DNA of 64,000 bases from the IMG/VR virus record IMGVR_UViG_3300024999_000035, positions 1 to 64,000 of that record. The stretch is one strand, 5' to 3'. The notes under the pieces are model-generated. The model had not been told where the DNA came from. It ran no database searches and saw only the letters and a list, made by a program, of their open reading frames with translations. Below are positions 188 to 63,523 of this stretch, in pieces. Numbering within the stretch: position 1 is the stretch's first letter; the number at the start of each line of letters is the position of its first letter. This DNA comes from a virus. Its lineage: Duplodnaviria > Heunggongvirae > Uroviricota > Caudoviricetes. The position numbers were made by a program, and so were the translations under genes.

Positions 188-700
188 CTACAATAAAATT
201 CCAACTTTAAAATCAGCATAATAAGTAGTAGTTCCTTGTTTATTTTCCTCACACCATTTATCCAATAATACTTGAAGACATTTTTCATCTTGTACTGAAA
301 TATTATCCATAGCATCTTCATGTAAATCACTACAAGCATCTTCAATAATATTAGAAGCATCCATTGATAATTCCATTGATTGTGTACCATAAATTCTTAA
401 TTCTTCACGACATATTGATTGGTCTGCTTCATTTTCTTTGTCTTCTATCCATTCCTCTAATTCTTCAATCATGAGATATTTATCATGATTATCAATATAA
501 ATCATGATAAAATCTTTTGTTGCTTGTTCATAAGATATTTTCTTTGCTTTATTCCAAGTTTCTAAATCTTTATCTTGTCTTTCTTTTAAGCGTTCTTGAT
601 TGTATTTTTCACAACTACATTTAGATGTAGATGTACTTTTATCAAGAATTTTATCACAATGCAAACATTTACTTTGAACTGCTACTAAAAACATAGACAA
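188..700 (-). CDS. hypothetical acidic protein
   Basis: 170-aa ORF from the track, Cys-containing N-terminus and acidic C-terminal half. It abuts the IS607-like right end. Confidence 0.5.
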   Translation of the reverse strand: MSMFLVAVQSKCLHCDKILDKSTSTSKCSCEKYNQERLKERQDKDLETWNKAKKISYEQATKDFIMIYIDNHDKYLMIEELEEWIEDKENEADQSICREELRIYGTQSMELSMDASNIIEDACSDLHEDAMDNISVQDEKCLQVLLDKWCEENKQGTTTYYADFKVGILL

Positions 701-837
701 ATGTGTACGTCATATCCATATCTAGATAATTGCTGATTCATCGTGTCTGTTTTTGTATTATTTCTAATCCTACTCACATTTGATGTAACACTCCACAGCC
801 GTAAATTTCCGACTAGCCATCGGTATTTGAAAATATT
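701..837 (-). ncRNA. candidate omega-RNA (reRNA) scaffold of the IS607 TnpB
   Basis: Non-coding 137 nt directly 3' of the tnpB stop. The minus-strand sequence GGCTGTGGAGTGTTACATCAAATGTGAGTAGGATTAG resembles the GCCTGTGGAGATGGAGGTTACGAAGTCAATGAAGCAGGAAC block found 3' of the other two tnpB copies. Confidence 0.35.
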
Positions 838-2016
838 TTAAGTAACATTAAATATTTTTGCGTTCTTTAGATTAATACTAGCATTCTTATCACGATCAAG
901 AATAATTCCACATTCAACACAAATATATGTCCTATCTGATAGATTTAAATCACTTTTAATACTTCCACACTCAGAACACATTTTGCTTGATGGAAACCAT
1001 CTATCTACCACTCTTAGTTCAATATTATTCCAATTACATTTATAAGTTAACTGTCTTCTAAACTCATGGAAACTTTGTTCGGCAATCGCTTTTGATAAAT
1101 GTCTATTCTTCATCATGCCTTTTACATTTAAATCCTCAATGGTTATATACTCAGGTTTGGATTTTACCAAAGTATTTGTAATTTGATGAGCATAATTTAA
1201 ACGAATATTAGATAGTTTTTGATAAATAGTTCTAATCTGAGCTTCTAGTTTAATAATGTTTTTAGTTTTGATGAATTTTTTACCATCTTTGTTCATTTCA
1301 TATTTTCTAGAAACTTGACGTTGTAATCTTTTTAACTTTCTTTTAAGTTTTCTCACAACAGGAGTCTTGTTAATATTCTTGAATGGTTCATCAATATTAC
1401 TAACTGTTGCTAAATCCTTAATTCCTAAATCAATGCCAATTGGTTCATTATTAGCATCGGAATAATCATTATAGTCAGCAATATCACACAATACTGAAAC
1501 ATAATATCTCCCTGCTTTCATTGAAACAGTCCCACTCACAACTTTTACATTGGTTGGTATATATCCTTTTTCCTTTAATTCAACAAATCCTAGAGTTGGT
1601 ATCTGAATTTTGTGACGTTCCACAGACCAATCACCTTTTCCATTCTTAGGAAAATAAATCTTAACATCTTGATTCTTTTTCTTTTTAAATCTAGGGAATT
1701 TAGACTGTCCTTTAAAGAATCGTTTATAAGCCATTTCAGCATTTACAATAGATTTCTTTCTTGCTTTAGAACCGCAATTGTCAATCCATTTGAATTCATC
1801 TAATATCTTAACTTCATTGTTGATGTATTTATCAAAATCATTAGCACTCATAAACGCTTGTTTCTTGTCTATCTCACCATTTTTAAATAGTTCATATAAC
1901 TCTTTATTTTTAGCTAGATAAGAATTATATAAGAAACGGCATATACCAATAGATTGATGGATTTTGGTAATATGCATTTTTGTTACTCTGAGTTCAGTTT
2001 TAAATCCTTTGAGCAT
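838..2016 (-). CDS. tnpB: TnpB (OrfB) RNA-guided-nuclease-family transposon protein, IS607-associated
   Basis: 392 aa with RuvC-like motifs (IGIDLG ... ITIEDL ... DRDKNASINL) and a C-terminal CxxC...CxxC zinc finger. It overlaps the upstream tnpA. Confidence 0.9.
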   Translation of the reverse strand: MLKGFKTELRVTKMHITKIHQSIGICRFLYNSYLAKNKELYELFKNGEIDKKQAFMSANDFDKYINNEVKILDEFKWIDNCGSKARKKSIVNAEMAYKRFFKGQSKFPRFKKKKNQDVKIYFPKNGKGDWSVERHKIQIPTLGFVELKEKGYIPTNVKVVSGTVSMKAGRYYVSVLCDIADYNDYSDANNEPIGIDLGIKDLATVSNIDEPFKNINKTPVVRKLKRKLKRLQRQVSRKYEMNKDGKKFIKTKNIIKLEAQIRTIYQKLSNIRLNYAHQITNTLVKSKPEYITIEDLNVKGMMKNRHLSKAIAEQSFHEFRRQLTYKCNWNNIELRVVDRWFPSSKMCSECGSIKSDLNLSDRTYICVECGIILDRDKNASINLKNAKIFNVT

Positions 2017-2618
2017 ATTTCCACATCCTCTATAATTTTCTTTTTATATTTTCTTAAACCGTAAATTTTACAACTAAAAACATGGATTATTGAAATTAAA
2101 TCTTGAATCATTTCTTCTTGTGGTGACATTGATTCATTATTCACGATGATCAGTTCAACGCCATTAGACTTCAGGAATCGTTCAAACCAATCAAAACCAA
2201 ATCTTATAAATCTGTCTTTATGAGAAATAATGATTATTTTTATTAATCCTAAGATACAATCCTCTAATAATTTATTCCATTTCTTGCGATTATAATTAAG
2301 TCCTGAACTAATATCCTCGAATACTTCATCTACAATAATTCCTTTGGCATTAGCATATTGTTTAAGAAAATCTACTTGATTTTTTAAGTCGTCTTTTTGA
2401 TTGCTACTTGAAACTCTTGTATAGATAATTGTTTTTCTAGTATCTTTGTCTGAGATTGTTTTTCCAATGTATTCCATGTATTGTTGATTGGTATAATACC
2501 TTCTATTAGATGGTGTTCTGAATGCTTTTAAAATATCCTCATTGTCCCATCTTTGAAGCGTTTTTACTGAAACGCCAACCATTGTTGCAAACTCATTAGG
2601 TTTATATGTATTAATCAA
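1983..2618 (-). CDS. tnpA: IS607-type TnpA, serine recombinase with N-terminal MerR-like HTH
   Basis: 211 aa. N-terminal HTH (ATMVGVSVKTLQRWDNE) followed by a resolvase catalytic core (IIYTRVSSSNQKDDLKNQ). TTG start sits 8 nt after AAGGAG. Confidence 0.85.
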   Translation of the reverse strand: MINTYKPNEFATMVGVSVKTLQRWDNEDILKAFRTPSNRRYYTNQQYMEYIGKTISDKDTRKTIIYTRVSSSNQKDDLKNQVDFLKQYANAKGIIVDEVFEDISSGLNYNRKKWNKLLEDCILGLIKIIIISHKDRFIRFGFDWFERFLKSNGVELIIVNNESMSPQEEMIQDLISIIHVFSCKIYGLRKYKKKIIEDVEICSKDLKLNSE

Positions 2619-2638
2619 AATATCAACTCCTTATATAC

Positions 2639-2667
2639 ATAATACCATATATGTACACACTTGTCAA
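2639..2667 (-). promoter_or_regulatory. sigma70-type promoter driving tnpA (-35 TTGACA, 17-nt spacer, -10 TATTAT)
   Basis: Minus-strand read TTGACAagtgtgtacatatatggTATTAT, about 25 nt upstream of the tnpA RBS. Confidence 0.55.
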
Positions 2668-2675
2668 TGTTTTAA

Positions 2676-2900
2676 TTAACAGTAAACGACTCCATTATAA
2701 CAATGTCTGCATCCAACAATAGTTTGTTGTTTATATGGGAAATTAATTTTTTTACTATTTTCACCTTTGATTCCAAAAGAATTATTATCTACTTGAAGTC
2801 CTGTGCCACCGCAATGAGAGCAGATAATTTCATGTTCTTGGAGGTCTTTTTGAAGTTTAAGGTTGAATGATACATCAATTTGTTCGGTTCTTATTGGCAT
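2676..2900 (-). CDS. small zinc-ribbon protein (CxxC...CxxC)
   Basis: 74-aa ORF with CSHCGGTG ... CRHCYNG. Confidence 0.45.
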   Translation of the reverse strand: MPIRTEQIDVSFNLKLQKDLQEHEIICSHCGGTGLQVDNNSFGIKGENSKKINFPYKQQTIVGCRHCYNGVVYC

Positions 2901-2922
2901 TTATTTAATTCTCCTTTTTCAT

Positions 2923-3261
2923 TTAATACCATTCATAATAATCTTTAAAATTTCTATCATGATTATAATAATCTTTATTACCATACTCAGGGATAAATTT
3001 ACAAAAAACAACATGATCAAGTGACATTTTACTTATATTTTTATCGATATATGCGTACTGCCATCTATACCCTCTGGCATTATCACTAACTCTAATTGCT
3101 TGATAATAATCTCCATTATTTAATTCAACAGTATATATTCCAGTATTAGGAGACGTTTTTATAACTTTTCTAATATCTTTTGGATTCATATTGTCAAGTA
3201 ATTCCTGTAATTTATTGAATGCTCTTTCTACTGTTGATCCATATACGATTATGTTTTTCAT
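2923..3261 (-). CDS. hypothetical protein
   Basis: 112-aa ORF with an upstream RBS and consistent minus-strand packing. Confidence 0.45.
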   Translation of the reverse strand: MKNIIVYGSTVERAFNKLQELLDNMNPKDIRKVIKTSPNTGIYTVELNNGDYYQAIRVSDNARGYRWQYAYIDKNISKMSLDHVVFCKFIPEYGNKDYYNHDRNFKDYYEWY

Positions 3262-3864
3262 TTTTCACATCCTAATAAAATCTCATTTCTTGGTATTTAA
3301 TTTTTCGCTTTCAATTCTTTTAATAGCATCCAAAGTTTCTAATAAAGCTTTCTTGTACCCTTTTGACCATGCATATGTACTTTCATTATAGTAATCTATA
3401 TTGATAGAATTTATTTCATTGATTAACCATTCCTTTAATTCTTTCATTGTGAACTATTCTCCTTTCTTCTTTATTCACCTCCCTTCTGTCTGTTTTATTT
3501 TATGATTATTCAAGTGAAATGGTGAGTATTATATTTCGTCTCTGATGAAGGTTATGTACTCTGAAATCATACAAAAATCGCAAGGATGGTCAAAATGGAT
3601 GCCTCCATAATCTAATCCATTTTTGTTTGGACAATACCATTTGCAGAATTGTTCTTTTAATTCTAACAATTTATTTTCCATTAAAATTCCTCATCCAGTG
3701 CTAATTTCCAACATTCAGAACATTTATCCTCTCCTTCGCCACATTTATTGTGCTGATTTTCATTTAAATTTATATGACTTGGGCATACACCAATTAATTT
3801 ATATAATTGAGAATTAGGTTCTAATTGTAAATATTCTATTAATTTATCTTTGCCTGTCATTTAA

Positions 3865-4350
3865 TCAATCCTCCTTAATAAATTCAATAATATCCATCAT
3901 TGCATATGTTCTTAGAGCATCTTTTTCTACATCAAATACATCAATTAACCATTGCTCTGTTTTGTGATAATCTGTTTTTCCATAATGTACTTTTAAAGGA
4001 ATGATAGTTCTAATACCAATCTCGCCTTTCCAATTCTTATATTTTACTTTGAGTGGAATTTCTACTGGTTGAGTTTGCATTCTATTTACTTTTGTTTCTA
4101 CTTTGGTTTCAATTAATTCTAACATCTCGTTTGACCATGAAAAGAGATTATCGTCAATATCTAAACCATACTGCCAATCACTATATACTATTTCAACAAT
4201 AATTGCTTCTTTACCTAAATATTTAACCATTTCTTCAACAAAATCAACATTATTATAATCTTCTCCAGATTTTAAATCTGATTTGATTATTACTTTATCT
4301 CCAATTTTCATTGTTGCATCCTTCTTTCTAAAATTAATTATAAGATTCAT
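3865..4350 (-). CDS. hypothetical protein
   Basis: 161-aa ORF ending at a TGA stop. Confidence 0.45.
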   Translation of the reverse strand: MNLIINFRKKDATMKIGDKVIIKSDLKSGEDYNNVDFVEEMVKYLGKEAIIVEIVYSDWQYGLDIDDNLFSWSNEMLELIETKVETKVNRMQTQPVEIPLKVKYKNWKGEIGIRTIIPLKVHYGKTDYHKTEQWLIDVFDVEKDALRTYAMMDIIEFIKED

Positions 4351-26831: not shown

Positions 26832-27125
26832 TTATTCGCCTTCTTTCTTAATCAATATATCTAAGAAACCTTTCATTTCTATATCTTCTTTTGACTGTTT
26901 AACAATTGCATCAATATAATCCTTATCATCATTGCAAATATATTGATATATGTGATTCTTAAACATTGCCAACATTTGCGCTTGACCTAGTTTAAAAATA
27001 CGATATAGTTTTTTATAAGGATATACATCGTTCATTAATCTGTTCATTTCAATATTAAATGGATCTATGTTATGTTTATAGTCCTTATATTTTTCAAGTT
27101 TTTCTATGGTTTTATTTATGTCCAT
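26832..27125 (-). CDS. hypothetical protein
   Basis: 97-aa ORF with RBS AAAGGAGAG. Confidence 0.4.
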   Translation of the reverse strand: MDINKTIEKLEKYKDYKHNIDPFNIEMNRLMNDVYPYKKLYRIFKLGQAQMLAMFKNHIYQYICNDDKDYIDAIVKQSKEDIEMKGFLDILIKKEGE

Positions 27126-27154
27126 TATTTACACTCTCCTTTTTGTTTATTTAC

Positions 27155-27180
27155 AAGGGGAGAATAAACTCCCCTATATA
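27155..27180 (-). promoter_or_regulatory. GC-rich hairpin GGGGAG-tttatt-CTCCCC between two genes (possible attenuator/partial terminator)
   Basis: Stem read directly, followed on the minus strand by UUGUAAAU. Confidence 0.3.
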
Positions 27181-27188
27181 TCCCATTA

Positions 27189-27497
27189 TTATTTCTTAGA
27201 TTTAACACCAGAAGATAATTTATTTAACCTATCTTCTAATTTTTTCGCATCATTCAATACTAAACTCATAGATTGCTCTGAAGTAAATCCTACATTGACA
27301 TAAGCATCAAATTGATTCTTTTTAGCAATTGCAGTAGTGCTAAAATATTCAGTATTATTCGCATAATCTTTATAGATATTAAATAATTCTTCTGCAACTC
27401 CATATAATAGTGGTTTGTATTGATCGACTAATTCACTCACCATTGGTTTAGCTAATTTAGGATTTGACATTACCATCTCGATTAATTTATTAAACAT
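27189..27497 (-). CDS. hypothetical protein
   Basis: 102-aa ORF. Confidence 0.4.
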   Translation of the reverse strand: MFNKLIEMVMSNPKLAKPMVSELVDQYKPLLYGVAEELFNIYKDYANNTEYFSTTAIAKKNQFDAYVNVGFTSEQSMSLVLNDAKKLEDRLNKLSSGVKSKK

Positions 27498-27529
27498 TAT
27501 TAATTACCTCTTTCTTTTTTAAATTATTT

Positions 27530-28441
27530 TTATTTTCCTGCATCTGCCATTGGCAAACTAATAATTTGATTTCCACCAACAACTTGTGGATATACCCCAT
27601 TCCATTTCAATACAGATTGATATTTAACAAGTGTATCGGTTAAAGATGCTTGTAATAGATTATTAGCTTCTGCTTCACCTTTTGCCTTAATAACTGCTGC
27701 ATCCGCGATCCCTTGAGCATCTACTCTTGCTTTATTTGCTGTAACTGTAGATTGGGATAATTCAATTTCCATTTGTTGAAGTTTTTGCTGTGCATCTACT
27801 TTTGCTTGAATTGCTTTCATAGTATCAGCATCAGGACGAATTTCTCCAAAACTAAATGTTTCAACTTCTAATCCAAATGGAGTTAATTCTTTGATTAATA
27901 TGTCATGAATTTTATTTTGAATTTCTGAGCGTTTATTGCCATATAAATCAAGAACACTATAACTAGATGTAACAGATTGTGATGCTGTTTTTACTTGTTG
28001 TTTAAGATAGCCTGATTGGATGGATTCGATATCAGCACCTTTAAAACGATTAAAAATAGCAGGTAATTTTTCTACATTTACGTGATATGTAAAGTAAGCA
28101 TCAACATTAACTGGTTTACCTTCCATTGTAGAAGTATTATATGAATCATCATTAGGTGAACCCTCAGTTGCACCTTTAGTCAACCATACTGTTTCTGTAG
28201 AAATTGGATATTCTCTAATGCTTTTCCAAGGAGCTACAATATGCCATCATTGGCTTAATGTAATATCTTCTAGGCCACCAGATACATTATAAACAATTCC
28301 TGCATGTCCAGGATTAATTTTTGTAGTAGATGCCCCAAAACCTGCAAGCAAAACAACTGCCGATACTCCAACCGTAATTAAACCTTTGGTGAATTTATTC
28401 ATTTTAAAATTACTCATATCAATATTAATATTATTTCTCAT
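27530..28441 (-). pseudogene. SPFH/band-7 (flotillin/HflK-like) membrane protein gene interrupted by a single in-frame TGA at 28247..28249
   Basis: N-terminal ORF 28247..28441 (TM helix, then GHAGIVYNVSGGLEDITLSQ*). The same frame continues after the TGA as WHIVAPWKSIREYPISTETVWLTKGATEG... into ORF 27530..28183, which is SPFH-like with a coiled-coil tail. Confidence 0.55.
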
Positions 28442-28565
28442 TATTTTTAATCTCCTCTTTAATTTTATTTTCTACTTCTTCAATTTTCTGACCTATTTTT
28501 GAGTATAAGGGTATTGCTAAGAACAATAATATTATAACTAATGCAATAATAGAAATTACAAGCAT
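28431..28565 (-). CDS. small hydrophobic membrane protein (about 44 aa) overlapping the SPFH gene start
   Basis: MLVISIIALVIILLFLAIPLYSKIGQKIEEVENKIKEEIKNNEK after AAGGAGGTG. Its stop overlaps the SPFH ATG. Confidence 0.4.
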   Translation of the reverse strand: MLVISIIALVIILLFLAIPLYSKIGQKIEEVENKIKEEIKNNEK

Positions 28566-28751
28566 GTATATCATCACCTCCTTTATTCATATATTATTTT
28601 ATAATGAATTTATTGAGTAAATTGACTTAATTTTTCTCTTAATTCTAAATGTGCATTAATTTTTAATTCGGCATCTTCTTTTATTTGTTTTGTATTTAAC
28701 AATTCTTGTTCCAATGAATCAATTTTAACTTGACTCTGATCTTTAGATTCT

Positions 28752-28960
28752 TTCAATATTTCATTCGCCTTTTGAACCTCACACGAATAAATTCGCGTGA
28801 TTCTAACCTCACGATTAGAGGTTCCTGCTTCATTGACTTCGTAACCTCCATCTCCACAGGCTTAAAATCCGATAGTCCCTACCGTACTGATATTAAATTA
28901 AGCACTTAATAATCTCATACCTTCATTCCTAATATTGATTGCTGCATTCACATCTCTATT
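28752..28960 (-). ncRNA. candidate TnpB omega-RNA (scaffold about 28772..28960 overlapping the tnpB 3' end, then about 20-nt flank-derived guide 28752..28771)
   Basis: The 3' flank of tnpB copy A shares GCCTGTGGAGATGGAGGTTACGAAGTCAATGAAGCAGGAAC...TTTATTCGTGTGAGGTTCAA with copy B (...TTTATTTGTGTGAAGTTCA). Similarity stops abruptly at 28772. Confidence 0.5.
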
Positions 28961-30050
28961 ATGATATGAATTACACTCTGGACAATCCCATTCTCTAATA
29001 GATAAATCTTTTACTTCAATGTTTTTATAACCACAAACATTACATAATTGAGAAGAAGGAAAAAATCTATCTACTTTCTGAACAATCCTATCATGCCATA
29101 ATGATTTATATTGTATTATTCTAACAAACTCACTCCAAGATACATCATTAATTGCTTTTGCCAATTTATGATTCTTAACCATATTTTTAACAGACAAATC
29201 TTCTAAGCAAATTATTTGGTTTTCTTTAATAAGCCTAGTTGATAATTTTTGTAAAAAGTCATTTCTTTGATTAGTAATCTTTTCATGAACTATGTTGAGT
29301 TTAATTCTCGCTTTATTCCGATTTTTGCTACCTTTTTTCTTCTTAGAAAGTTTTCTTTGTGTCTTTTTTAATTTATCTTCAAGTTTAGATAAATATTTTG
29401 GATTGTCAATAATTTCACCTTCTGACGTAATCGCAAATTCTTTTAATCCTAAATCTATTCCCACAATGTTTTTATTGTTCTCGAATTCTACAACATCTAC
29501 TTCAGTACAACATATAGATACAAAATATTTACCAGAACAAGTCTTAGTAATAGTGCAATTCAATATTCTCCCTTGTATTTCTCTTGATTTAGCAAATTTA
29601 ACCAATCCAAGCTTAGGCAATTTAATTAAATTACCTTCAATTCTAATATTGTTGTTAGTTAAGGTAGTTCTATAACTACACTCATGATTATGTTTAGATT
29701 TAAACTTAGGAAATCCCTGATCTTTATTACCATTCTTAATTTCTCTAAAGAAATTTTGATATGCTCTGTCTAAATCTTTTAAAGAATTCTGTAAAGCAAA
29801 TTTATCTATTTCCTTTAACCATTCTTTTTCTTTTTTAAGAATAGTTAAATCCGCAGAACAAGCATTATAATTCATAGATTTTTGTTCTGTTTTATATAGT
29901 TCAATTCTTTTAGCTAAATAGTTATTATAAACAAATCTGCAAGATCCAAATGTTTTTGCTAATTGTATTTTCTGATTTTCATCAGGACATAATCTAAACT
30001 TAAATGCTTTTTCTGTCATAAATAAATTCATCTACCTTTCTTTTTGAGTA
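28772..30050 (-). mobile_element. compact TnpB-only IS200/605-type element, copy A (left end approximate)
   Basis: Right-end boundary defined by loss of similarity to copy B. Left end shares GAATTwATTyATG with copy B. Confidence 0.55.
28898..30031 (-). CDS. tnpB: TnpB (IS200/IS605-family OrfB, IS1341-like), intact
   Basis: RuvC-I IVGIDLG, RuvC-II ICLEDL, RuvC-III NRDVNAAINI, and zinc finger CNVCG...CPECN. A second in-frame ATG at 30019 aligns with the copy B start. Confidence 0.9.
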   Translation of the reverse strand: MNLFMTEKAFKFRLCPDENQKIQLAKTFGSCRFVYNNYLAKRIELYKTEQKSMNYNACSADLTILKKEKEWLKEIDKFALQNSLKDLDRAYQNFFREIKNGNKDQGFPKFKSKHNHECSYRTTLTNNNIRIEGNLIKLPKLGLVKFAKSREIQGRILNCTITKTCSGKYFVSICCTEVDVVEFENNKNIVGIDLGLKEFAITSEGEIIDNPKYLSKLEDKLKKTQRKLSKKKKGSKNRNKARIKLNIVHEKITNQRNDFLQKLSTRLIKENQIICLEDLSVKNMVKNHKLAKAINDVSWSEFVRIIQYKSLWHDRIVQKVDRFFPSSQLCNVCGYKNIEVKDLSIREWDCPECNSYHNRDVNAAINIRNEGMRLLSA

Positions 30051-30578
30051 TTGATATAGCTCTCAATTTGTTATTCTTCTTTAATTCAGGATGATGCTGA
30101 AACATTCTTATCAATTTCCATAACTGCAAGATTAAACATAGATACTGCGTTTTCTACAACCCCTATTGCCTTTTGAATCATCATAGAAGGTGTTAATTGC
30201 TTTTTCTTAAACATATCAATCTCCCCTTTTAATTTTATATTTAATTTAATAATATAACTTATGTATTTTTATATCTAATAATTAACTCATTAATTTCTTG
30301 TTCCTCAGATTCACTTAATTTTTCACAGCATAAAACACATGACTTTAAAAATGCTAGTGCTTGAATAACTTCATTTTTCATTTTATCACCACCTTTCAAT
30401 TTAATCATTCAATTACCTATATATTTTCTAGCTTCTCTAATTGTTTCACTTTCTTTTTCAAAAGAATAATTTGAACCAGTTTGTTCGCTTTTGATATCCA
30501 TTAATAATTTAAGACAATGGATTAAAAGTTTAACGATTAACTTATTTGTATTCATAACAATTCTCCTTCAATCAAGAA

Positions 30579-30812
30579 TTAATATAATTTATCAGACAAC
30601 ACTTTCACAATATTATAAATGTCATCAATTTCACTTAGTCCTTTAATACTTTCTAATCCTTCTTTAATAATATTTACACCATTTTCTATTGAATCAAGCA
30701 TATTATCAACGTCATCTTTTGAAACGAACAATTCTTTAAGAGTAAAACCAAAATCATTATCTTTTAATTCTTCTAAGGTATATGTATTAAATTCTTTTCT
30801 TAATGAACTCAA
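30579..30812 (-). CDS. hypothetical small acidic protein
   Basis: 77-aa ORF. Confidence 0.4.
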   Translation of the reverse strand: MSSLRKEFNTYTLEELKDNDFGFTLKELFVSKDDVDNMLDSIENGVNIIKEGLESIKGLSEIDDIYNIVKVLSDKLY

Positions 30813-30844
30813 TTTATTTACCTCCTTTCTTAGAACAATTAAAT

Positions 30845-31243
30845 TTACTTTACTGCATTTTTAACAGCGTTTGACAAATCTTGTAAAGCGTAATATTGAG
30901 GATTGATCAAATGTTTTATTCCATTTGTTAGTTCTGACATTCCGAATATTAAAAATATAATAATACTAACTACTATGACCGCAATACTAATTACCATAGC
31001 AATAATATATTCTTCTTCATCGTAATCATCTTTTTCTTTTAGTTTCTTTGCATATTTTAAGATTTTAAAACTAACTATTCCACATCCTACAATAAATATA
31101 AGGAATAACACTGATGCCCAAATTAATGATGATATTCCATCTACATAAGATTGTTGCATATAAATTTTAAATACCTCTTGTCCCGTAGAACTTACTTGTT
31201 CATCCAATTTACTAAGAAAATCTAATATCAATTTTGTATCCAT
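30845..31243 (-). CDS. membrane protein (2 predicted TM helices)
   Basis: Hydrophobic stretches LIWASVLFLIFIVGCGIVSF and IIAMVISIAVIVVSIIIFLIF. Confidence 0.5.
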   Translation of the reverse strand: MDTKLILDFLSKLDEQVSSTGQEVFKIYMQQSYVDGISSLIWASVLFLIFIVGCGIVSFKILKYAKKLKEKDDYDEEEYIIAMVISIAVIVVSIIIFLIFGMSELTNGIKHLINPQYYALQDLSNAVKNAVK

Positions 31244-31301
31244 TTTATTTCTCTCCTTTTATATTCTATTCATTATCCATTAAAAACTACATTTTAAATA
31301 C

Positions 31302-31730
31302 TCAATTTATATCTATTTGTTCAAATTCTTTCTGTAACTCTTCAATTTTCTTTGATAGCTCAATTATTAATGCATTATGGATTATATCTTTATAAAAATC
31401 TCTTTCATTAACTCCTAAGCTATCAAAAATTTCTTTAGAAGTAATATTTAAGGAATTGTAACCGTACTCTTCTTTATAGTCATAACTTGGGCATCCATCC
31501 TGTTGTTGAGATAATTTAAAACCAAAATCTTTTACATCATAATTATTTTTAGTATAAACATATTGGTCACTATCTTCTCCAAAGTCTTTAAATGGATTAT
31601 CTCTCCTATATTCGCAATTAGACATATACTCCAATTTATTAACAAACTCTTGCAATTCCTTTATTCTTTTATTTAATTCTAGCAACCTATGTAACTTCCA
31701 TTCATTTTTAGTGAATAATTCTCTATCCAT
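31302..31730 (-). CDS. hypothetical protein
   Basis: 142-aa ORF. Confidence 0.45.
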   Translation of the reverse strand: MDRELFTKNEWKLHRLLELNKRIKELQEFVNKLEYMSNCEYRRDNPFKDFGEDSDQYVYTKNNYDVKDFGFKLSQQQDGCPSYDYKEEYGYNSLNITSKEIFDSLGVNERDFYKDIIHNALIIELSKKIEELQKEFEQIDIN

Positions 31731-32125
31731 TAATCACATCCTCCACAATCACAGCTCCCTGAGTCATAACTACCACCAGAATCATATGAACTATGAGAAT
31801 CATGTGAACTGCTATGAGAATTACTTCCATAGTCATGATATACAGGATAAAAATCATCATCATATGTATTGTGACTATGAATAGCGTTTGAAGTTTTTGA
31901 AGGTATTTTTGTTTTCTTTGTAGTTGATGAAGTAATTGGTGTAGTTTTAACATCTGTATTAACTTTAGCAAACTTAATTCTTTCATGCGCTGGTCTGGTA
32001 TATGGAATGATAATCTCATTTTCTGATTTCTTACTTTTAGTATTTTTGGAGTTAATTATATAATATCCTATTCCTAAACCACCTAGAGCAACAAAACCAG
32101 TAATTACACCTATAGACATTGACAT
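31730..32125 (-). CDS. membrane-anchored His/Ser/Asp-rich protein with C-terminal Cys cluster (putative metal-binding)
   Basis: N-terminal TM helix GVITGFVALGGLGIGYYII. C-terminal SNSHSSSHDSHSSYDSGGSYDSGSCDCGGCD. Confidence 0.5.
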   Translation of the reverse strand: MSMSIGVITGFVALGGLGIGYYIINSKNTKSKKSENEIIIPYTRPAHERIKFAKVNTDVKTTPITSSTTKKTKIPSKTSNAIHSHNTYDDDFYPVYHDYGSNSHSSSHDSHSSYDSGGSYDSGSCDCGGCD

Positions 32126-33767: not shown

Positions 33768-35048
33768 TTACTTTACACTTATTCCTTCAATAGTTTTACT
33801 TAATATTTCTTCAATTCTATCAAATTCATAATACCAAATCTCAAGAAAATTATACTCTTTTTCTAAAGCGTATTCTTTCTTTCGTCTGTCATGTTCGACT
33901 TGTTTTTCAAAGTCTTTAATTGATTTATGTATTCCTTTTACAAATCTTTCATGCATTTCACCTTGATATTCTATAAGTAAATTATATTGAGATAAATAAA
34001 AATCATAAGATAATAAACATCCACCTAGACCAATTAGTCCTTCAAATGTTTTTTGTGGTATGTAATTTATTTCTTTGTCGAATAATTTCTTGCCAACTTC
34101 AATTTCACCTATTGAACATTGACATTCTGGACATCTAAAATCACGCGAATTAGAACCATCAATGTTTCTCTTATAGTCTTTATGTTTACCGTCTTTACAT
34201 TTCCACCAAACTTCTTTACCACTACGAGGAGCATATTCGTATGGAGATTTTTTATTTTTATTAGACCATAAATTTAAAACTTCAGGATGTATAATACCTA
34301 AACTATCTAATTTATGCAGTATATGATTATTATTACAGTATGAACATCTTCTATCATTATAAAAATTACATGGTGACACATCATAACTCCCATGGTGTTC
34401 TTTATCTTGGCATTTAATCCATACTTTATTTCTTGCACATTTATCAATCTTCCAAGGATTAACAGTGTTTTTATCATGATCCCAATACTTTTCTAAAAAA
34501 TCTTCTCCTAGATTATCTACTCCCCATTGTGCAAACGAATTACATTGTTTGCATTTTATAGATCCTTCCTGTCCACCAGTAAAAGCATTAATATTCTTTA
34601 ATTCACTATTATGTAAACTTCTTGGGCATTTAAAATAATGTTTTTTATTTGTAGCAAAACCTATTTCATTTGGGTTCTTTTTATTTAACTCATAGTCCCA
34701 TCTGTCAAGAATGTCTTGTCGATTATTTTCAATACACCATTGTTCAAAAGATTTGCCATTCTTTAATTTTGATATTCTAAATCTTTCCTGACCGCATTTT
34801 AGACAATAATATTTTCCATCTTCCTTCATTATTCTTTTATAACTATGCCATATTACAGGTTTGGTAATTGGAGTAGTACATTCTTTGCAATCACATTTGA
34901 CGTTTACTTCCACAGGACTACCATCTGTCAAATCTTCCACTTTAACTTCAAATTCGTCACCCATCTTAGTATAAACATAACCCTTACTTTTATACCACTT
35001 TATATTGTTTGAATTCCACCTAATAATAACATTTTTAGTTAATAACAT
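33768..35048 (-). CDS. zinc-ribbon-repeat protein with C-terminal Vsr/DUF559-like PD-(D/E)xK endonuclease domain (homing-endonuclease-like)
   Basis: Three W-D-x-x-x-N...P...WWKC-type zinc-ribbon repeats (WDYELNKKNP, WDHDKNTVNP...VWIKC, LWSNKNKKSP...VWWKCKDGKH). C-terminal LIEYQGEMHERF. N-terminal paralogue of the 62027..63523 gene. Confidence 0.5.
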   Translation of the reverse strand: MLLTKNVIIRWNSNNIKWYKSKGYVYTKMGDEFEVKVEDLTDGSPVEVNVKCDCKECTTPITKPVIWHSYKRIMKEDGKYYCLKCGQERFRISKLKNGKSFEQWCIENNRQDILDRWDYELNKKNPNEIGFATNKKHYFKCPRSLHNSELKNINAFTGGQEGSIKCKQCNSFAQWGVDNLGEDFLEKYWDHDKNTVNPWKIDKCARNKVWIKCQDKEHHGSYDVSPCNFYNDRRCSYCNNNHILHKLDSLGIIHPEVLNLWSNKNKKSPYEYAPRSGKEVWWKCKDGKHKDYKRNIDGSNSRDFRCPECQCSIGEIEVGKKLFDKEINYIPQKTFEGLIGLGGCLLSYDFYLSQYNLLIEYQGEMHERFVKGIHKSIKDFEKQVEHDRRKKEYALEKEYNFLEIWYYEFDRIEEILSKTIEGISVK

Positions 35049-57738: not shown

Positions 57739-58062
57739 TTACAATTTCACTAGCAATTTTCCCATCATACATACCCCATAAGAATTTTTCAGTACAGACA
57801 TAACTTTGCCAATTTGAACTTCTGAATTAATATCTTTTAATGCTTCAATGATATCTCTAACAACATTTTCTAACTCCTCTCTGTTCATTTTCTGAGGCAA
57901 GTAATTACTTAGAGTTTTAATTTCATTCTCAATATGACTAACATCTTTATTATTTTTCAAAAGAATTGTTTGAATCTCATTTGCGTTCTTAACAAATTTC
58001 TCAATGACTTGCAATACTTCTTGATCTGTTGATTCACGATTTCCAAGATTCTTTCCGACCAT
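57739..58062 (-). CDS. hypothetical protein (possibly GatB/YqeY-like), start probably at ATG 58062
   Basis: The ORF-track start at 58089 lies inside the TnpB element right end. The in-frame ATG (MVGKNLGNRESTDQ) sits 14 nt beyond the element boundary. Confidence 0.4.
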   Translation of the reverse strand: MVGKNLGNRESTDQEVLQVIEKFVKNANEIQTILLKNNKDVSHIENEIKTLSNYLPQKMNREELENVVRDIIEALKDINSEVQIGKVMSVLKNSYGVCMMGKLLVKL

Positions 58063-58240
58063 AGATGCTTCAGATTGAACTTCACACAAATAAAATTTGC
58101 ATAATTCCTAATTCATTGACCAGACTAACGCCCAATCTCCAAAGACTATCCCTGTAGTTCCTACAGTTCTAAACATTTTTAACCTATTAATCTCATTCCT
58201 TCATTCCTAATATTAATTGCAGCATTTATATCTCTGTTAT
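58056..58240 (-). ncRNA. candidate TnpB omega-RNA of copy B (scaffold about 58076..58240, then flank-derived guide about 58056..58075)
   Basis: Homologous to the copy A scaffold (GGAGAT.GG.GTTA...GTCAATGAA..AGGAA...TTTATTTGTGTGAAGTTCA). Similarity ends at 58076. Confidence 0.5.
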
Positions 58241-59310
58241 GATGACTACCGCACTCTGGGCAAATCCATTCTCTAATAGATAAATCTTTTACCTCAACAT
58301 TTTTATATCCACAAATATTACACAATTGAGAAGAAGGGAAGTATCTATCTATTACTGAAATTTCTCTACCGTACCAAATTGCTTTGTAATTTAACATAGA
58401 AGTAAAATTATACCACGAAGCATCTGATATACTTTTTGCTAATTTATAATCCTTCTTCATTTCTTCAATATCTAAACTTTCTAGACAAATAATTTGGTTT
58501 TCATTAATAAGTCTAGTTGATAGTTTTTGAAGAAAATCTATTCTGGTATTAGTAATTTTCTCATAAAGCCTAACTACTTTAATTCTTGCTTTATTTCTAT
58601 TTTTACTACCTTTTTGCTTTTTAGAATGTTTTCTATGTAATTTAGTTAATTTATTTTCATATTTTTGATAATATTTAGGATTATCTATAATCTCTGCTTC
58701 GGATGTAATAGCAAAATCTTTAATCCCTAAATCTATTCCAATATTAATTTTTGATATAGGTAGTTTAATAGGTTCTGGAAATTCACAAAGTATAGATATA
58801 AAATACTTACCACTAGGGACTTGAGATACTGTTACATTTTTGATTACTCCAATTACTTCTCTTGATTTAGCAAATTTAATTAGACCAAGTTTAGGAAGTT
58901 TAATTTTATTGCCATCAATTCTAATATTATTATTCGATACATTGGTTCTATAAGATTTGCGGTTATCTTTTTTAGATTTAAACTTAGGAAAACCTTGTTT
59001 TTTATTCCCTTTCTTTATTTCTCTAAAGAAATTTTGATAAGCTCTATCTAAATTTCTGAGAGTTTGTTGAAGAGAAACACTATCAATTTCTTTTAGCCAT
59101 TCAAATTGCTTTTTAAGTTGAGGAAGATTGCTTGAGCATTGATTGTATGTTAATGACTTTTTATCATTTACATACATTTCAATTCGTTTATTAAGATAAT
59201 AATTATATATGAACCTATTTGATCCTAAAGTTTTATTAATTAATATTTCTTGTTCTTTATTGGGATATAATCTAAACTTAAATGCTTTAAACATGAATTA
59301 ATTCCCTATA
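58076..59310 (-). mobile_element. compact TnpB-only IS200/605-type element, copy B (left end approximate)
   Basis: Right-end boundary defined by loss of similarity to copy A. Left end shares GAATTwATTyATG with copy A. Confidence 0.55.
58179..59294 (-). CDS. tnpB: TnpB (IS200/IS605-family OrfB, IS1341-like), intact
   Basis: [26 protein letters not shown] and CNICG...CPECG. Aligns with copy A along its full length. Confidence 0.9.
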
Positions 59311-59355
59311 AAAATCAGATTTAATTTGATTGATTAACATTTTTATACCTTCTTT

Positions 59356-62026: not shown

Positions 62027-63523
62027 CTATTTTAAATATTCATCATAGTACATCCATTCCAGCGATTCACCTAAATATTTGCCAGCATGTTTATATTTAT
62101 GCTTACAACAATAGACTATACTACTAGAACTCTTTATATTATATTTATTAGACGCTTCTTTTAAAGTATCAAATGTCTTACCAGTAGTTAAACATATAAC
62201 CTTTTTACTTATATTTTTAATTAGTGATAATATATTATTTCTTTTCTCTTCTTCTGGATCATAATCACACCACCCCAACTCAACTCCTTGTTTGAGATAT
62301 CTTGCAATTGTGTCTCTATGTAATTTTAACTTTTCTCCTATTTTAGAAACATTATCCGTTCCGCAATTCCATAAATTACAAACAACCTTAACCAAACTAT
62401 TACAAGCCCATTCATGGCATTTCAACCAATTAATATCTGATTCTTTAAAATTTAATAACTTAGGAAGCCTACTTTTCATGATACTGTCCTTAATCCAATT
62501 TATATTAGATTTTCTACAATCGATAATTATGTAGTTTGCTATACTATTTCCCCTTGCAGTCCATTCTTTGGTGAAATCATTATCTTGAGTTTTTTGTAAT
62601 TCTGTCCAAAAAATCCCACTAGATTCTTCATAATGTTGAATTCCATGAGTTTCGATAATACAATTAATTTTATCTATGTAATTATCGTATCTATAATCTT
62701 TACACCATTTAAAGGTATTTTTGCTTAATTGGGTTTTAAATTCTTTATCTAACAATTGCTCCAAGACATTAAACATAAATTTTTCTGGATATGATTTTCC
62801 ATCTGAACATTTTGGACATGCAAATCCATTGTTTATCAAACTTAAAAGTTGCATTGATTTCTCATACCCACAATCAGGGCATTTCATAGGAATCTTTACA
62901 TCAGATCCGAATGAATATTTTAAAGCATCTTCTTTATTTACTAAATATATTTGTAATTCAGGATGAGTTATAGATATAGAATTACATTGATTGCAAATAA
63001 TACTACCTTCATGCCCACTTATAAAACTACTAATGTTCTTCTGTTCAGATTTATGCTCTGGATATTCTAAACATTTGAACCAGTAACCTTTCCTGTTAAT
63101 TCCTAGCGAACCATAACTGACTTCATTAGGGTGTATTTTATTTAACCCATAGTCCCAACGAGATAGTATCTTGTCTACTTCGTCTTTAAGTAAGTTATCA
63201 TAGCACCATTGTTCAAAGGATTTACCATTGATTATTTTTGTTTTTATGATTTTTTCTTTACTAAATAAGTTGTAAGCACATTTTCTACAATAATATTTAC
63301 CATCTTCTCTTACTCCCTTTGTATAACTACACCATTGAATATTAGTTAATATTTCTCCACAACCATCACATTGAACATTAACCAAAGCGTGGGAACTATT
63401 AGATAAATCTTTGACGCTAATTTCTAAATCATTACTAATTCCAGTATATAAATATCCTTTATTTTCATATCTTTTTTTATTACTTGCGTGCCATTTTACT
63501 ATCACTGTTTCAGATAACAACAA
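62027..63523 (-). CDS. zinc-ribbon / restriction-endonuclease-fold homing-endonuclease-like protein with C-terminal ICLTTG...WMYYDEY DNA-binding module
   Basis: N-terminus paralogous to the 33768..35048 protein (MLLSETVIVKWHASNKK.YENKGYLYT versus MLLTKNVIIRWNSNNIKWYKSKGYVYT). Internal YRYDNYIDKINCIIETHGIQHY (D...ExH/QH nuclease-like). C-terminal module shared with GIY-YIG 53070..54008. Confidence 0.5.
   Translation of the reverse strand: MLLSETVIVKWHASNKKRYENKGYLYTGISNDLEISVKDLSNSSHALVNVQCDGCGEILTNIQWCSYTKGVREDGKYYCRKCAYNLFSKEKIIKTKIINGKSFEQWCYDNLLKDEVDKILSRWDYGLNKIHPNEVSYGSLGINRKGYWFKCLEYPEHKSEQKNISSFISGHEGSIICNQCNSISITHPELQIYLVNKEDALKYSFGSDVKIPMKCPDCGYEKSMQLLSLINNGFACPKCSDGKSYPEKFMFNVLEQLLDKEFKTQLSKNTFKWCKDYRYDNYIDKINCIIETHGIQHYEESSGIFWTELQKTQDNDFTKEWTARGNSIANYIIIDCRKSNINWIKDSIMKSRLPKLLNFKESDINWLKCHEWACNSLVKVVCNLWNCGTDNVSKIGEKLKLHRDTIARYLKQGVELGWCDYDPEEEKRNNILSLIKNISKKVICLTTGKTFDTLKEASNKYNIKSSSSIVYCCKHKYKHAGKYLGESLEWMYYDEYLK

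Follow-up and report, generated by a model that had tools for sequence, protein, structure and literature searches.

The 64,000-nucleotide (nt) stretch of phage DNA analyzed here (positions 1 to 64,000 of the Caudoviricetes record IMGVR_UViG_3300024999_000035 of IMG/VR, called the window below) carries three genes that encode TnpB nucleases, each followed by a guide-RNA scaffold and each lying within an insertion that splits one phage gene. The insertions, all on the minus strand together with their parts, are copy A, a complete IS607-type element (679..2689), copy B, a 5'-truncated IS605 derivative (28772..30109), and copy C, a 5'-truncated IS605-type derivative (58075..59314). Our reading is that these are selfish IS200/IS605 and IS607 insertions in dispensable genes, that B and C have lost their left ends and that they would home, guided by RNA, into alleles that lack the insertion (empty alleles). 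We put the probability of this reading as a whole at roughly 0.55. Its anatomical part taken alone is close to certain, and the predicted homing activity of copies B and C falls slightly short of an even chance.

The three tnpB genes are intact, as had been claimed by an earlier model-made note on the window (the sequence-only reading). The copy A gene (838..2016) encodes an ISFba1-like protein of 392 amino acids (aa), whereas those of copy B (28898..30031, 377 aa) and copy C (58179..59294, 371 aa) encode ISDra2-like proteins. All are full-length open reading frames (ORFs) having the Pfam domains HTH_OrfB_IS605, OrfB_IS605 and Cas12f1-like_TNB plus four zinc-finger cysteines. The RuvC triad of copy A (D196/E294/D376) aligned with that of ISFba1 (D194/E290/D371), the copy C triad (D188/E272/D355) and zinc finger aligned with those of ISDra2 (D191/E278/D361), and the copy B triad (D193/E277/D360) was derived through a gap-free alignment to copy C. 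Copy B TnpB is 65% identical to that of copy C and 30% identical to that of copy A. Copies B and C matched the structures of ISDra2 TnpB (8BF8/8EXA) with E values of about 1e-110 (8e-111 and 6.5e-111, respectively, against PDB 8BF8) and copy A matched PDB 8IAZ (E = 6.6e-112), which is ISFba1 TnpB (PMC11061315). Judged by these residues all three are predicted to be RuvC-competent members of the TnpB/OMEGA nuclease class, OMEGA standing for obligate mobile element-guided activity. A reading of the proteins as TldRs, nuclease-dead TnpB-like regulators, was rejected because the RuvC triads are intact in three of three.

For comparison of the scaffolds, 80 IMG/VR loci encoding relatives of copy B were fetched (loci and contigs carry L numbers below). 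Among the loci read, a homologous block follows the tnpB stop codon, and beyond the end of the block every locus differs. The block ends in ...GAGGTTCAA in most of these loci, the variants being GTCAA, GTTCAG and GTCCAA. A covariance model, R1, was built from a seed alignment of ten sequences having a consensus fold in which nine of 24 pairs show double-sided compensatory changes. R1 gave only three matches in the window, each directly behind a tnpB: positions 28772-28901 in copy B (117.6 bits, E 3.2e-22), 58075-58183 in copy C (79.9 bits, E 2.3e-14) and 703-840 in copy A, the last match being weak (36.1 bits, E 3e-5). The omega-RNA scaffolds of copy B (28772..28901) and copy C (58075..58183) end in ...GUGUGAGGUUCAA and ...GUGUGAAGUUCAA, respectively, and that of copy B has an extra stem-loop (28799-28821) in common with L012 and L001. 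When 48 viral loci were aligned to R1, 95.2% of the cells were standard pairs (38-50% with partners slid by 1-3 columns) and both-sided changes were found in 21 of the 24 pairs, figures that are somewhat inflated because the alignment was fitted to R1. Covariation is also found in the raw sequences (CGGTAG/CTATCG, CTGTAG/CTACAG, CCGTGG/CACACGG and GGGCGG/CACGCCC). Folding of the single sequences gave z values of -2.8 for copy B and -1.8 for copy C.

The structured RNA expected behind the tnpB genes was thus confirmed by covariance modeling. The conserved block behind each gene is, as predicted from homology, covariation and the empty alleles, a right-end guide-RNA scaffold fused to a guide derived from the flank, and here we agree with the sequence-only reading. 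The block is absent from the empty alleles of sibling phages, and hence the scaffold belongs to the element rather than to the flanking genes; the outcome that would have counted against such a scaffold, a block forming part of the flanking gene in relatives, was not seen. The copy B boundary proposed earlier (28772) is exact. That of copy C (58076) is real, but was off by one: the scaffold ends at 58075 and the guide starts at 58074 on the minus strand.

The IS607 scaffold was identified by another route. The core of its right end element RNA (reRNA) is a RAGATH-18 motif at 730..799 (Rfam RF03064, 71 bits vs. a gathering score of 44.9), and the scaffold continues from there to the right end at about 679, an end that had previously been given no position. 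Experiments have identified RAGATH-18 as the core of the guide RNA used by IS607 TnpB (PMC11061315). The copy A right end lies 49-51 nt past RAGATH-18, which is the spacing of the ISFba1 reRNA (motif at -51..-122 relative to the guide). The single-sequence fold of this scaffold was uninformative (z = -0.4) and it is the family-level RAGATH-18 match that carries weight. The earlier claim that the IS607 copy shares the scaffold of the other two is weakly true: a relationship is recognizable in the 5' hairpin and in the GGCTGTGGAG...GATGAA block and R1 gives its weak match, but RAGATH-18 had no score on copies B or C even at E<=10 (28600-29000 and 57950-58300). A permissive Rfam search gave nothing for copy B. 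In copy C, positions 58088..58172 (minus strand) gave a sub-threshold similarity to Rfam Ref70 'Enterococcus sRNA 70' (28 bits vs. a gathering score of 115) centered on an AGAACUGUAGGxACUACAGG hairpin; this similarity was not used, and Ref70 may itself be an IS605 omega-RNA fragment. A second omega-RNA scaffold of L001 (1259-1367, 113.5 bits) directly follows a 323-aa ORF with no tnpB upstream and is a solo right end or scaffold, which would be a remnant or else an element that lacks tnpB.

The three insertions all lie inside genes, each splitting one phage gene. This was established with sibling contigs, which were reached via proteins; the relatives of the window are IMG/VR contigs, the longest of them 230 kb, that come from a few IMG metagenome datasets whose taxon IDs are close in number, and the adjoining genes of the siblings are 83-98% identical to those of the window at the amino acid level. 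The empty-site alignments show that the small ORFs past the TnpB right ends are the 3' fragments of split genes.

At the copy A site ten siblings (L109-L118) are continuous, reading ...CATTGTTATAATGGAG/TTCAAAGTAAATGTTT... (here and below a slash marks the junction), and in L111 a single intact CxxC-rich ORF of 230 aa crosses the site (...GCNHCYNG/VQSKCLHC...); the L118 copy has 205 aa. In the window the 5' half of this gene is at 2690..2900, the ORF call (2676..2900) reaching 14 nt into the element, and sibling alignments place the 3' half at 188..678, the window ORF being 188..700. Each boundary is ambiguous by 2 nt owing to a terminal AG common to element and flank. Between the boundaries are a left end having a promoter-like TTGACA-17-TATTAT, tnpA, tnpB, the reRNA scaffold and the right end. 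The tnpA gene (1983..2618) encodes a 211-aa serine recombinase with an N-terminal MerR-type helix-turn-helix (Pfam Resolvase 6.6e-21, MerR 8e-9), and lies upstream of tnpB with a 34-nt overlap, as in the IS607 arrangement. With serine-recombinase tnpA, tnpB, RAGATH-18 reRNA and both ends set by empty sites, copy A makes up a complete IS607 element.

Two side observations concern this site. In-frame TTG and ATG codons contributed by the IS607 right end (694..700, minus strand; ...TTGTCTATGTTTTTAGTAGCAG/TTCAAAG...) could allow translation to start again on the 3' half of the CxxC gene; upstream of them there is no evident Shine-Dalgarno motif. In the sibling L120 a different tnpA-less TnpB (377 aa) with a RAGATH-18 (52.7 bits) at 2626-3874 replaces most of the CxxC gene that is split by copy A, with deletion of flanking gene sequence, and may represent a further module of nuclease and guide, again without a transposase, at the same hotspot.

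Copy B interrupts an 88-aa coiled-coil gene that is uninterrupted in L108 (MFKKKQLT...MEIDKANEILKESKDQ..., with ...AVMEIDKANEILKESKDQ... in the site region). The L108 empty site reads ...GGAAATTGAT/AAGGCAAATGAAATATTGAA, whereas in the window the left junction is TTGAT/AAGAATGTTTCAG... (also written ...GGAAATTGAT/AAGAATGTTTCAGCATCATCCTGAATTAAAGAAGAA) and the right junction is ...GGTTCAA/AAGGCGAATG. The 5' part of the gene (35 codons) is at 30110..30214 and the 3' part is at 28610..28771, the latter 97% identical in nucleotide sequence to L108 3106-3273. The sequence-only reading had a TTG-started coiled-coil ORF here (28610..28756), but the TTG at 28756 is the leucine codon of ...ANEILKE... in the L108 gene. 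The right flank of the insertion is 97% identical to L108 and the left flank 86%, which may be a hint of co-conversion, although the data are too few.

Copy B consists of a tnpA remnant, tnpB, the omega-RNA scaffold and the right end. It has no left end; the flank (...TTGAT) directly joins sequence which, by alignment to the complete IS605 copies of L012 and L003, is the interior of a Y1 tnpA (...RRMFQHHPELKK...). The remnant of this IS200-type tnpA (30032..30109) is 78 nt long and comprises blocks of 36 and 42 nt with a 64-nt internal deletion between them, the 42-nt block being the last 42 nt of tnpA. Hence, the copy B tnpA has at least two separate deletions, whereas L012 has the full Y1 TnpA ORF of 133 aa.

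The deletion at the left junction (30107..30112) begins exactly at the cleavage position between the target-adjacent motif (TAM) and the left end (...TTGAT/) and resumes within tnpA at AAGAATG..., which hints at aberrant Y1 TnpA cleavage and rejoining at a pseudo-end rather than random deletion. The copy C deletion differs in that it takes in 60 nt of the host gene. The element closest to copy B, L012:3001-4133 (85% aa identity), is a complete IS605 element having an intact TnpA, a left-end palindrome and a tnpB broken into at least two ORFs, the reverse of the state in the window, where tnpB is intact and tnpA is destroyed.

Copy C interrupts a YqeY-like gene. Three siblings (L091, L083 and L095) have the gene uninterrupted (MLINQIKSD..LEARKARQTNTATLLTTLY/SEASMIGKNAGNRESTD...), and the intact L091 protein covers positions 2-143 of the Pfam YqeY profile. 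In the window, alignment to these siblings gives the first 26 nt of the gene (MLINQIKS...) at 59315..59340; the next approximately 60 nt are deleted along with the whole left end. The 3' part of the gene (57739..58074) covers only positions 39-126 of the profile and the copy C right end adjoins /TCTGAAGCATC... (SEAS...). The MVGKN start placed at 58062 by the sequence-only reading is an internal methionine of ...SEASM(I/V)GKN... in the uninterrupted gene. Copy C contains a 20-nt leader remnant, tnpB, the omega-RNA scaffold and the right end. It has neither a left end nor tnpA, those 20 nt being all that lies between the host gene and the tnpB ATG. An 81%-identical element in L034 has a left end of roughly 100 nt that includes the hairpin CCGTGACTTCAGTCATGAG, which is absent from copy C; the left-end hairpin is also present in L002 and L005. 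The occupied copy C allele recurs once, in an independent assembly at 99.87% identity, and this is the same replicating lineage, not a second acquisition. When IMG/VR was scanned with a protein pattern of copy C, only L012 and L081 were found, and closer copies came only from the metagenome scan.

In both copies B and C the right-end hairpin and the conserved cleavage tetranucleotide are present and comparison with the empty sites shows no target duplication. No Y1 tnpA gene was seen at the three element loci, the rest of the window not having been searched for one. Copies B and C are not complete IS200/IS605 transposons: they lack a left end, and with it a Y1 TnpA or a mobilizable pair of left and right ends. 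This bears directly on the earlier model, in which they were complete, compact and mobile TnpB-only elements, inserted between genes of the early region where insertion was tolerated or selected, each right end lying 14 nt upstream of the start of a small gene and outward transcription possibly driving the genes downstream. The model was correct as to the right-end boundary and guide positions, and TnpB-only elements are the norm in the family (tnpA is found in only 16 of 80 loci). However, it is refuted by the junction alignments and we consider it barely credible. The empty sites show both insertions (and that of copy A) to be inside genes, the 'starts' are internal codons of the L108 and L091/L083/L095 genes, and the supposedly compact elements have no left ends but a 78-nt tnpA remnant in B and the 20-nt leader plus 60-nt host deletion in C. 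Nothing points to insertions having been favored upstream of gene starts, nor are promoter-like sites enriched: promoter and terminator scans were indistinguishable from shuffled sequence and the sole 'terminator' was a stem within the copy B scaffold. An IStron reading was also rejected, as Rfam gave no group I intron above its gathering thresholds anywhere in the window, nor any at E<=10 in the intervals 28600-29000 and 57950-58300. As no such intron is present and the host ORFs are truncated or deleted, the split genes are not rescued by splicing.

The predicted guides, which are also the predicted targets, are the 20 nt past each right end (minus strand): 659..678 for copy A (TTCAAAGTAAATGTTTGCAT, also the start of the CxxC 3' half), 28752..28771 for copy B (AAGGCGAATGAAATATTGAA) and 58055..58074 for copy C (TCTGAAGCATCTATGGTCGG). 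The copy B and C guides had been given correctly by the sequence-only reading, and each occurs once in the window. The search for empty sites and TAMs in relatives that it recommended gave uninterrupted alleles for all three elements. The copy B guide matches L108 at 19 of 20 positions, the mismatch being at position 6, and TTGAT lies 5' of the target; with the L108 variation the TAM plus target reads TTGAT-AAGGC(A/G)AATGAAATATTGAA. The ISDra2 TAM is reportedly also TTGAT (Karvelis et al. 2021), which fits kinship with ISDra2 TnpB. The copy C guide matches at 18 of 20 positions in L095, where positions 9 and 18 differ, at 17 in L091 and at 15 in L083, and TATAT is found 5' of the target in all three. 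For copy A the guide matches L111 at 20 of 20 positions, L109 (which differs at position 17) and L110 at 19 and the seven others at 17-18, and the motif 5' of the target is TGGAG in nine of the ten empty sites. Compared with AGGAG, the TAM of ISFba1, this motif departs at position -5 alone. With ISFba1 any single TAM substitution abolishes cleavage, and the TAM contacts are made by K80, K83, N121 and by N122, which contacts dA(-5) (PMC11061315). Copy A conserves K80, K83 and N121 and has glycine in place of N122, a replacement that would fit an altered base at -5 in the copy A TAM. Thus, occupied and empty alleles coexist among the siblings, and the predicted nuclease target is present only in the empty allele, as is the case for homing endonucleases.

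Copies B and C started as canonical IS605-type insertions 3' of a TAM, and later deletions took the left end and tnpA from both, together with 60 nt of the host gene in copy C. The data suggest the following mechanism. The omega-RNA would derive from read-through or from the tnpB mRNA, tnpB and scaffold being co-transcribed; for copies B and C, which no longer have a left end, the source would be read-through transcription of the host gene that they split, all the genes being in one orientation. TnpB would process the transcript to an omega-RNA having a 16-20 nt flank-derived guide. As the element separates TAM from target, the complex could not cut its own genome. It would instead cut the uninterrupted allele carried by a sibling phage that infects the same cell or, in the case of the IS607 element, the donor site after excision, and recombinational repair from the occupied genome would copy the cassette in. 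For the complete IS607 element the published 'restorative' homing after excision would be possible. A Y1 transposase would find no left end in copies B and C, for which homing via the empty allele would be the only remaining route of spread. Such TnpA-independent 'non-restorative homing', or gene drive, has already been proposed, and is supported for plasmids (PMC13565253).

Several findings weigh against this scheme, and copies B and C may be young inert relics. Such relics would be recently immobilized IS605 fragments, now decaying and without a functional omega-ribonucleoprotein, that have done no more than knock out two accessory genes, and their tnpB genes would still be intact merely because little time has elapsed. 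Expression and cleavage by the three TnpBs are predictions from sequence, the promoter scans being uninformative. The tnpB genes of the nearest relatives are already broken or frameshifted (L012 for copy B and L034-L037 for copy C). The dN/dS ratio (nonsynonymous to synonymous substitution rates) of about 0.15 for copy B vs. its nearest relatives reflects constraint at the family level, not constraint since the left end was lost; for copy C and the broken L034 tnpB, synonymous sites are saturated and no usable ratio was obtained. Intact tnpB genes are the rule in the family (68 of 78 viral copies), and so are not evidence that selection has kept B and C. The probable copy C TAM, TATAT, comes from three empty sites only. 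The B and C sibling alleles have 1-5 mismatches to the guides, some in the TAM-proximal seed (position 6 for B and position 9 in L095 for C), which makes cleavage of those alleles uncertain. An occupied copy B allele was not found in other contigs, and thus there is no sign yet of its spread.

The relic explanation also draws on the loss of the left end and tnpA from B and C, the absence from copy C of the internal promoter region of the L034 left end, the single occurrence of the occupied B allele, and the tolerance of other gene decay in this genome, such as the in-frame TGA of an SPFH-like gene. Against it, both tnpB genes are full length with all catalytic and zinc-finger residues, and both scaffolds are full-length covariance-model matches. 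The copy B tnpA has at least two deletions and its tnpB is intact, which suggests unequal decay. Both tnpB genes are oriented like the split host gene, so that read-through transcription is available, and the occupied C lineage recurs in a second assembly. We regard the relics as a serious rival to homing, although an unlikely one.

A further possibility is that the phage keeps TnpB and its omega-RNA as a domesticated weapon that would cut the empty alleles of siblings and so exclude co-infecting competitors to the benefit of the phage, by analogy with marker exclusion by free-standing homing endonucleases. The guides do match alleles of close phages (83-98% aa identity in adjoining genes) from few IMG metagenome datasets, two free-standing HNH homing endonuclease genes are found in the same 64-kb window, and the further tnpA-less TnpB plus RAGATH-18 module of sibling L120 lies in the same gene as copy A. 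However, nothing separates benefit to the phage from selfish drive and the proposal has no support of its own. Moreover, the modules destroy phage genes instead of sitting beside them and there is no sign of guide diversification or of retargeting away from their own insertion sites. We consider a weapon improbable. Selfish homing remains the reading that we prefer. A more general and tentative proposal, which we consider less likely than not, is that left-end-less TnpB-omega-RNA cassettes might be transposase-independent, RNA-guided gene drives or exclusion nucleases acting between co-infecting large phages. Such cassettes would spread purely by cutting the empty alleles of dispensable genes followed by recombinational copying, and if the proposal is true they would be a natural analog, guided by RNA, of the homing endonucleases that occur free-standing in T-even phages.

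Comparison with known systems places each copy. Copy A is a member of the published IS607/RAGATH-18 TnpB family, agreeing with it in the features tested bar one TAM position. Like ISFba1 (PMC11061315) it has a serine-recombinase TnpA, a TnpB matching 8IAZ, an xGGAG motif and a RAGATH-18 that lies wholly 3' of the tnpB stop codon and is separated from the guide by about 50 nt of scaffold. It differs in having TGGAG in place of AGGAG and glycine in place of N122, and in residing in a phage, where it splits the gene for a CxxC protein.

Copies B and C are, by homology, ISDra2-type TnpB-omega-RNA systems derived from IS605 elements. They agree with the ISDra2-type IS200/IS605 elements in that their TnpBs are full-length homologs whose RuvC triad and zinc finger are the same, that the 3' untranslated region and right end make up the scaffold, and that the right-end flank serves as the guide. 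A hairpin and then ...TTCAA close the right end, and the copy B target follows TTGAT, as the ISDra2 target is reported to do. Unlike those elements, copies B and C have neither a left end nor a functional Y1 tnpA and hence cannot be excised or transposed, they lie inside coding sequences of a phage genome and the copy C motif is TATAT rather than TTGAT.

The closest parallels to the proposed behavior are the TnpB gene drive in plasmid populations (review PMC13565253 and its ref. 89) and the T-even free-standing homing endonucleases. In those systems, as would be the case here, the insertion is what lets the nuclease distinguish an occupied allele from an empty one, the orthologous site of a co-resident replicon is the target and no transposase is needed; here occupied and empty alleles coexist among siblings. 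Unlike the plasmid drive, the phage case is read from natural polymorphism alone, and unlike the Seg, Mob and HNH enzymes recognition would be RNA-guided rather than protein-based. IStrons, which join a group I intron to an IS605 TnpB element (PMC10690162), likewise carry an intact tnpB and omega-RNA without tnpA within a gene, but the Rfam searches gave no group I intron in the window and the host ORFs here are truncated or deleted. Phage-borne tnpB genes have been reported earlier in cyanophage A-1(L) and the Thermus Lalka phages; mapped empty sites or guide-target pairs were not found in those reports.

The biochemistry of TnpB, omega-RNA, RAGATH-18 reRNA and TAM recognition is already well described and the biology found here is what would be expected from it. 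What the locus offers is a natural data set of three sites in closely related large phages, each having occupied and empty alleles and TAM-target pairs. Two nuclease-plus-guide cassettes that lack a left end make non-restorative homing between phages, which is largely theoretical, directly testable, and the sites provide three candidate TAM/guide pairs for compact nucleases (371-392 aa). There is also a lesson for annotation, in that a small ORF starting just past the right end of a TnpB element may turn out to be the 3' half of a gene that has been split.

The window corresponds to a large phage's module for replication and nucleotide metabolism (ribonucleotide reductase, ExoV/Dda-like helicase, DNA polymerase, DnaB-like helicase and NAD-dependent ligase). 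It is AT-rich (28% GC) and no tRNA genes were found in the 64 kb. A megablast search of 27000-32000 against GenBank phages gave no match. The nearest bacterial homologs of copy B TnpB are from Clostridiaceae and other Bacillota metagenome-assembled genomes (<=71% identity), which hints at Bacillota as the phylum of the host rather than at any particular organism. The two HNH-type homing endonuclease genes (33768..35048 and 62027..63523, both minus strand; PHROGs 559, 9084, 12131 and 4538) are paralogous and free-standing, and are consistent with a genome that may be rich in selfish nucleases. Segments of both also resemble part of L021.

The SPFH/band-7-like gene at 27530..28441 (minus strand) has an in-frame TGA (...TLSQ*WHIVAPW...) where sibling L101 has a GGA glycine codon. 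Stop-codon recoding was rejected as the explanation, as TGA terminates three of 46 long ORFs, and the TGA looks like a nonsense mutation that has made the gene a pseudogene. The block of small genes around copy B is hypervariable (28584..31730 compared with L098, L099, L102, L106 and L108). Runs of genes are present or absent among siblings that are otherwise 87-98% identical, such as 28584..30578, or 27536..28603 in L108.

Finally, four phage contigs of 42-230 kb (L034-L037, two of about 230 kb) carry a copy-C-like element at 2475-4208. It is 81% identical to copy C at the amino acid level, its tnpB is frameshifted and its left-end hairpin is present. Use of this element as a second TAM read-out was dropped because the flanks are too diverged to place the left junction. 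The element lies between homologs of the window genes 2923..3261 and 3283..3447, a site that is unoccupied in the window (3262..3295), and hence, within this group of phages, the polymorphism of insertions runs in both directions.

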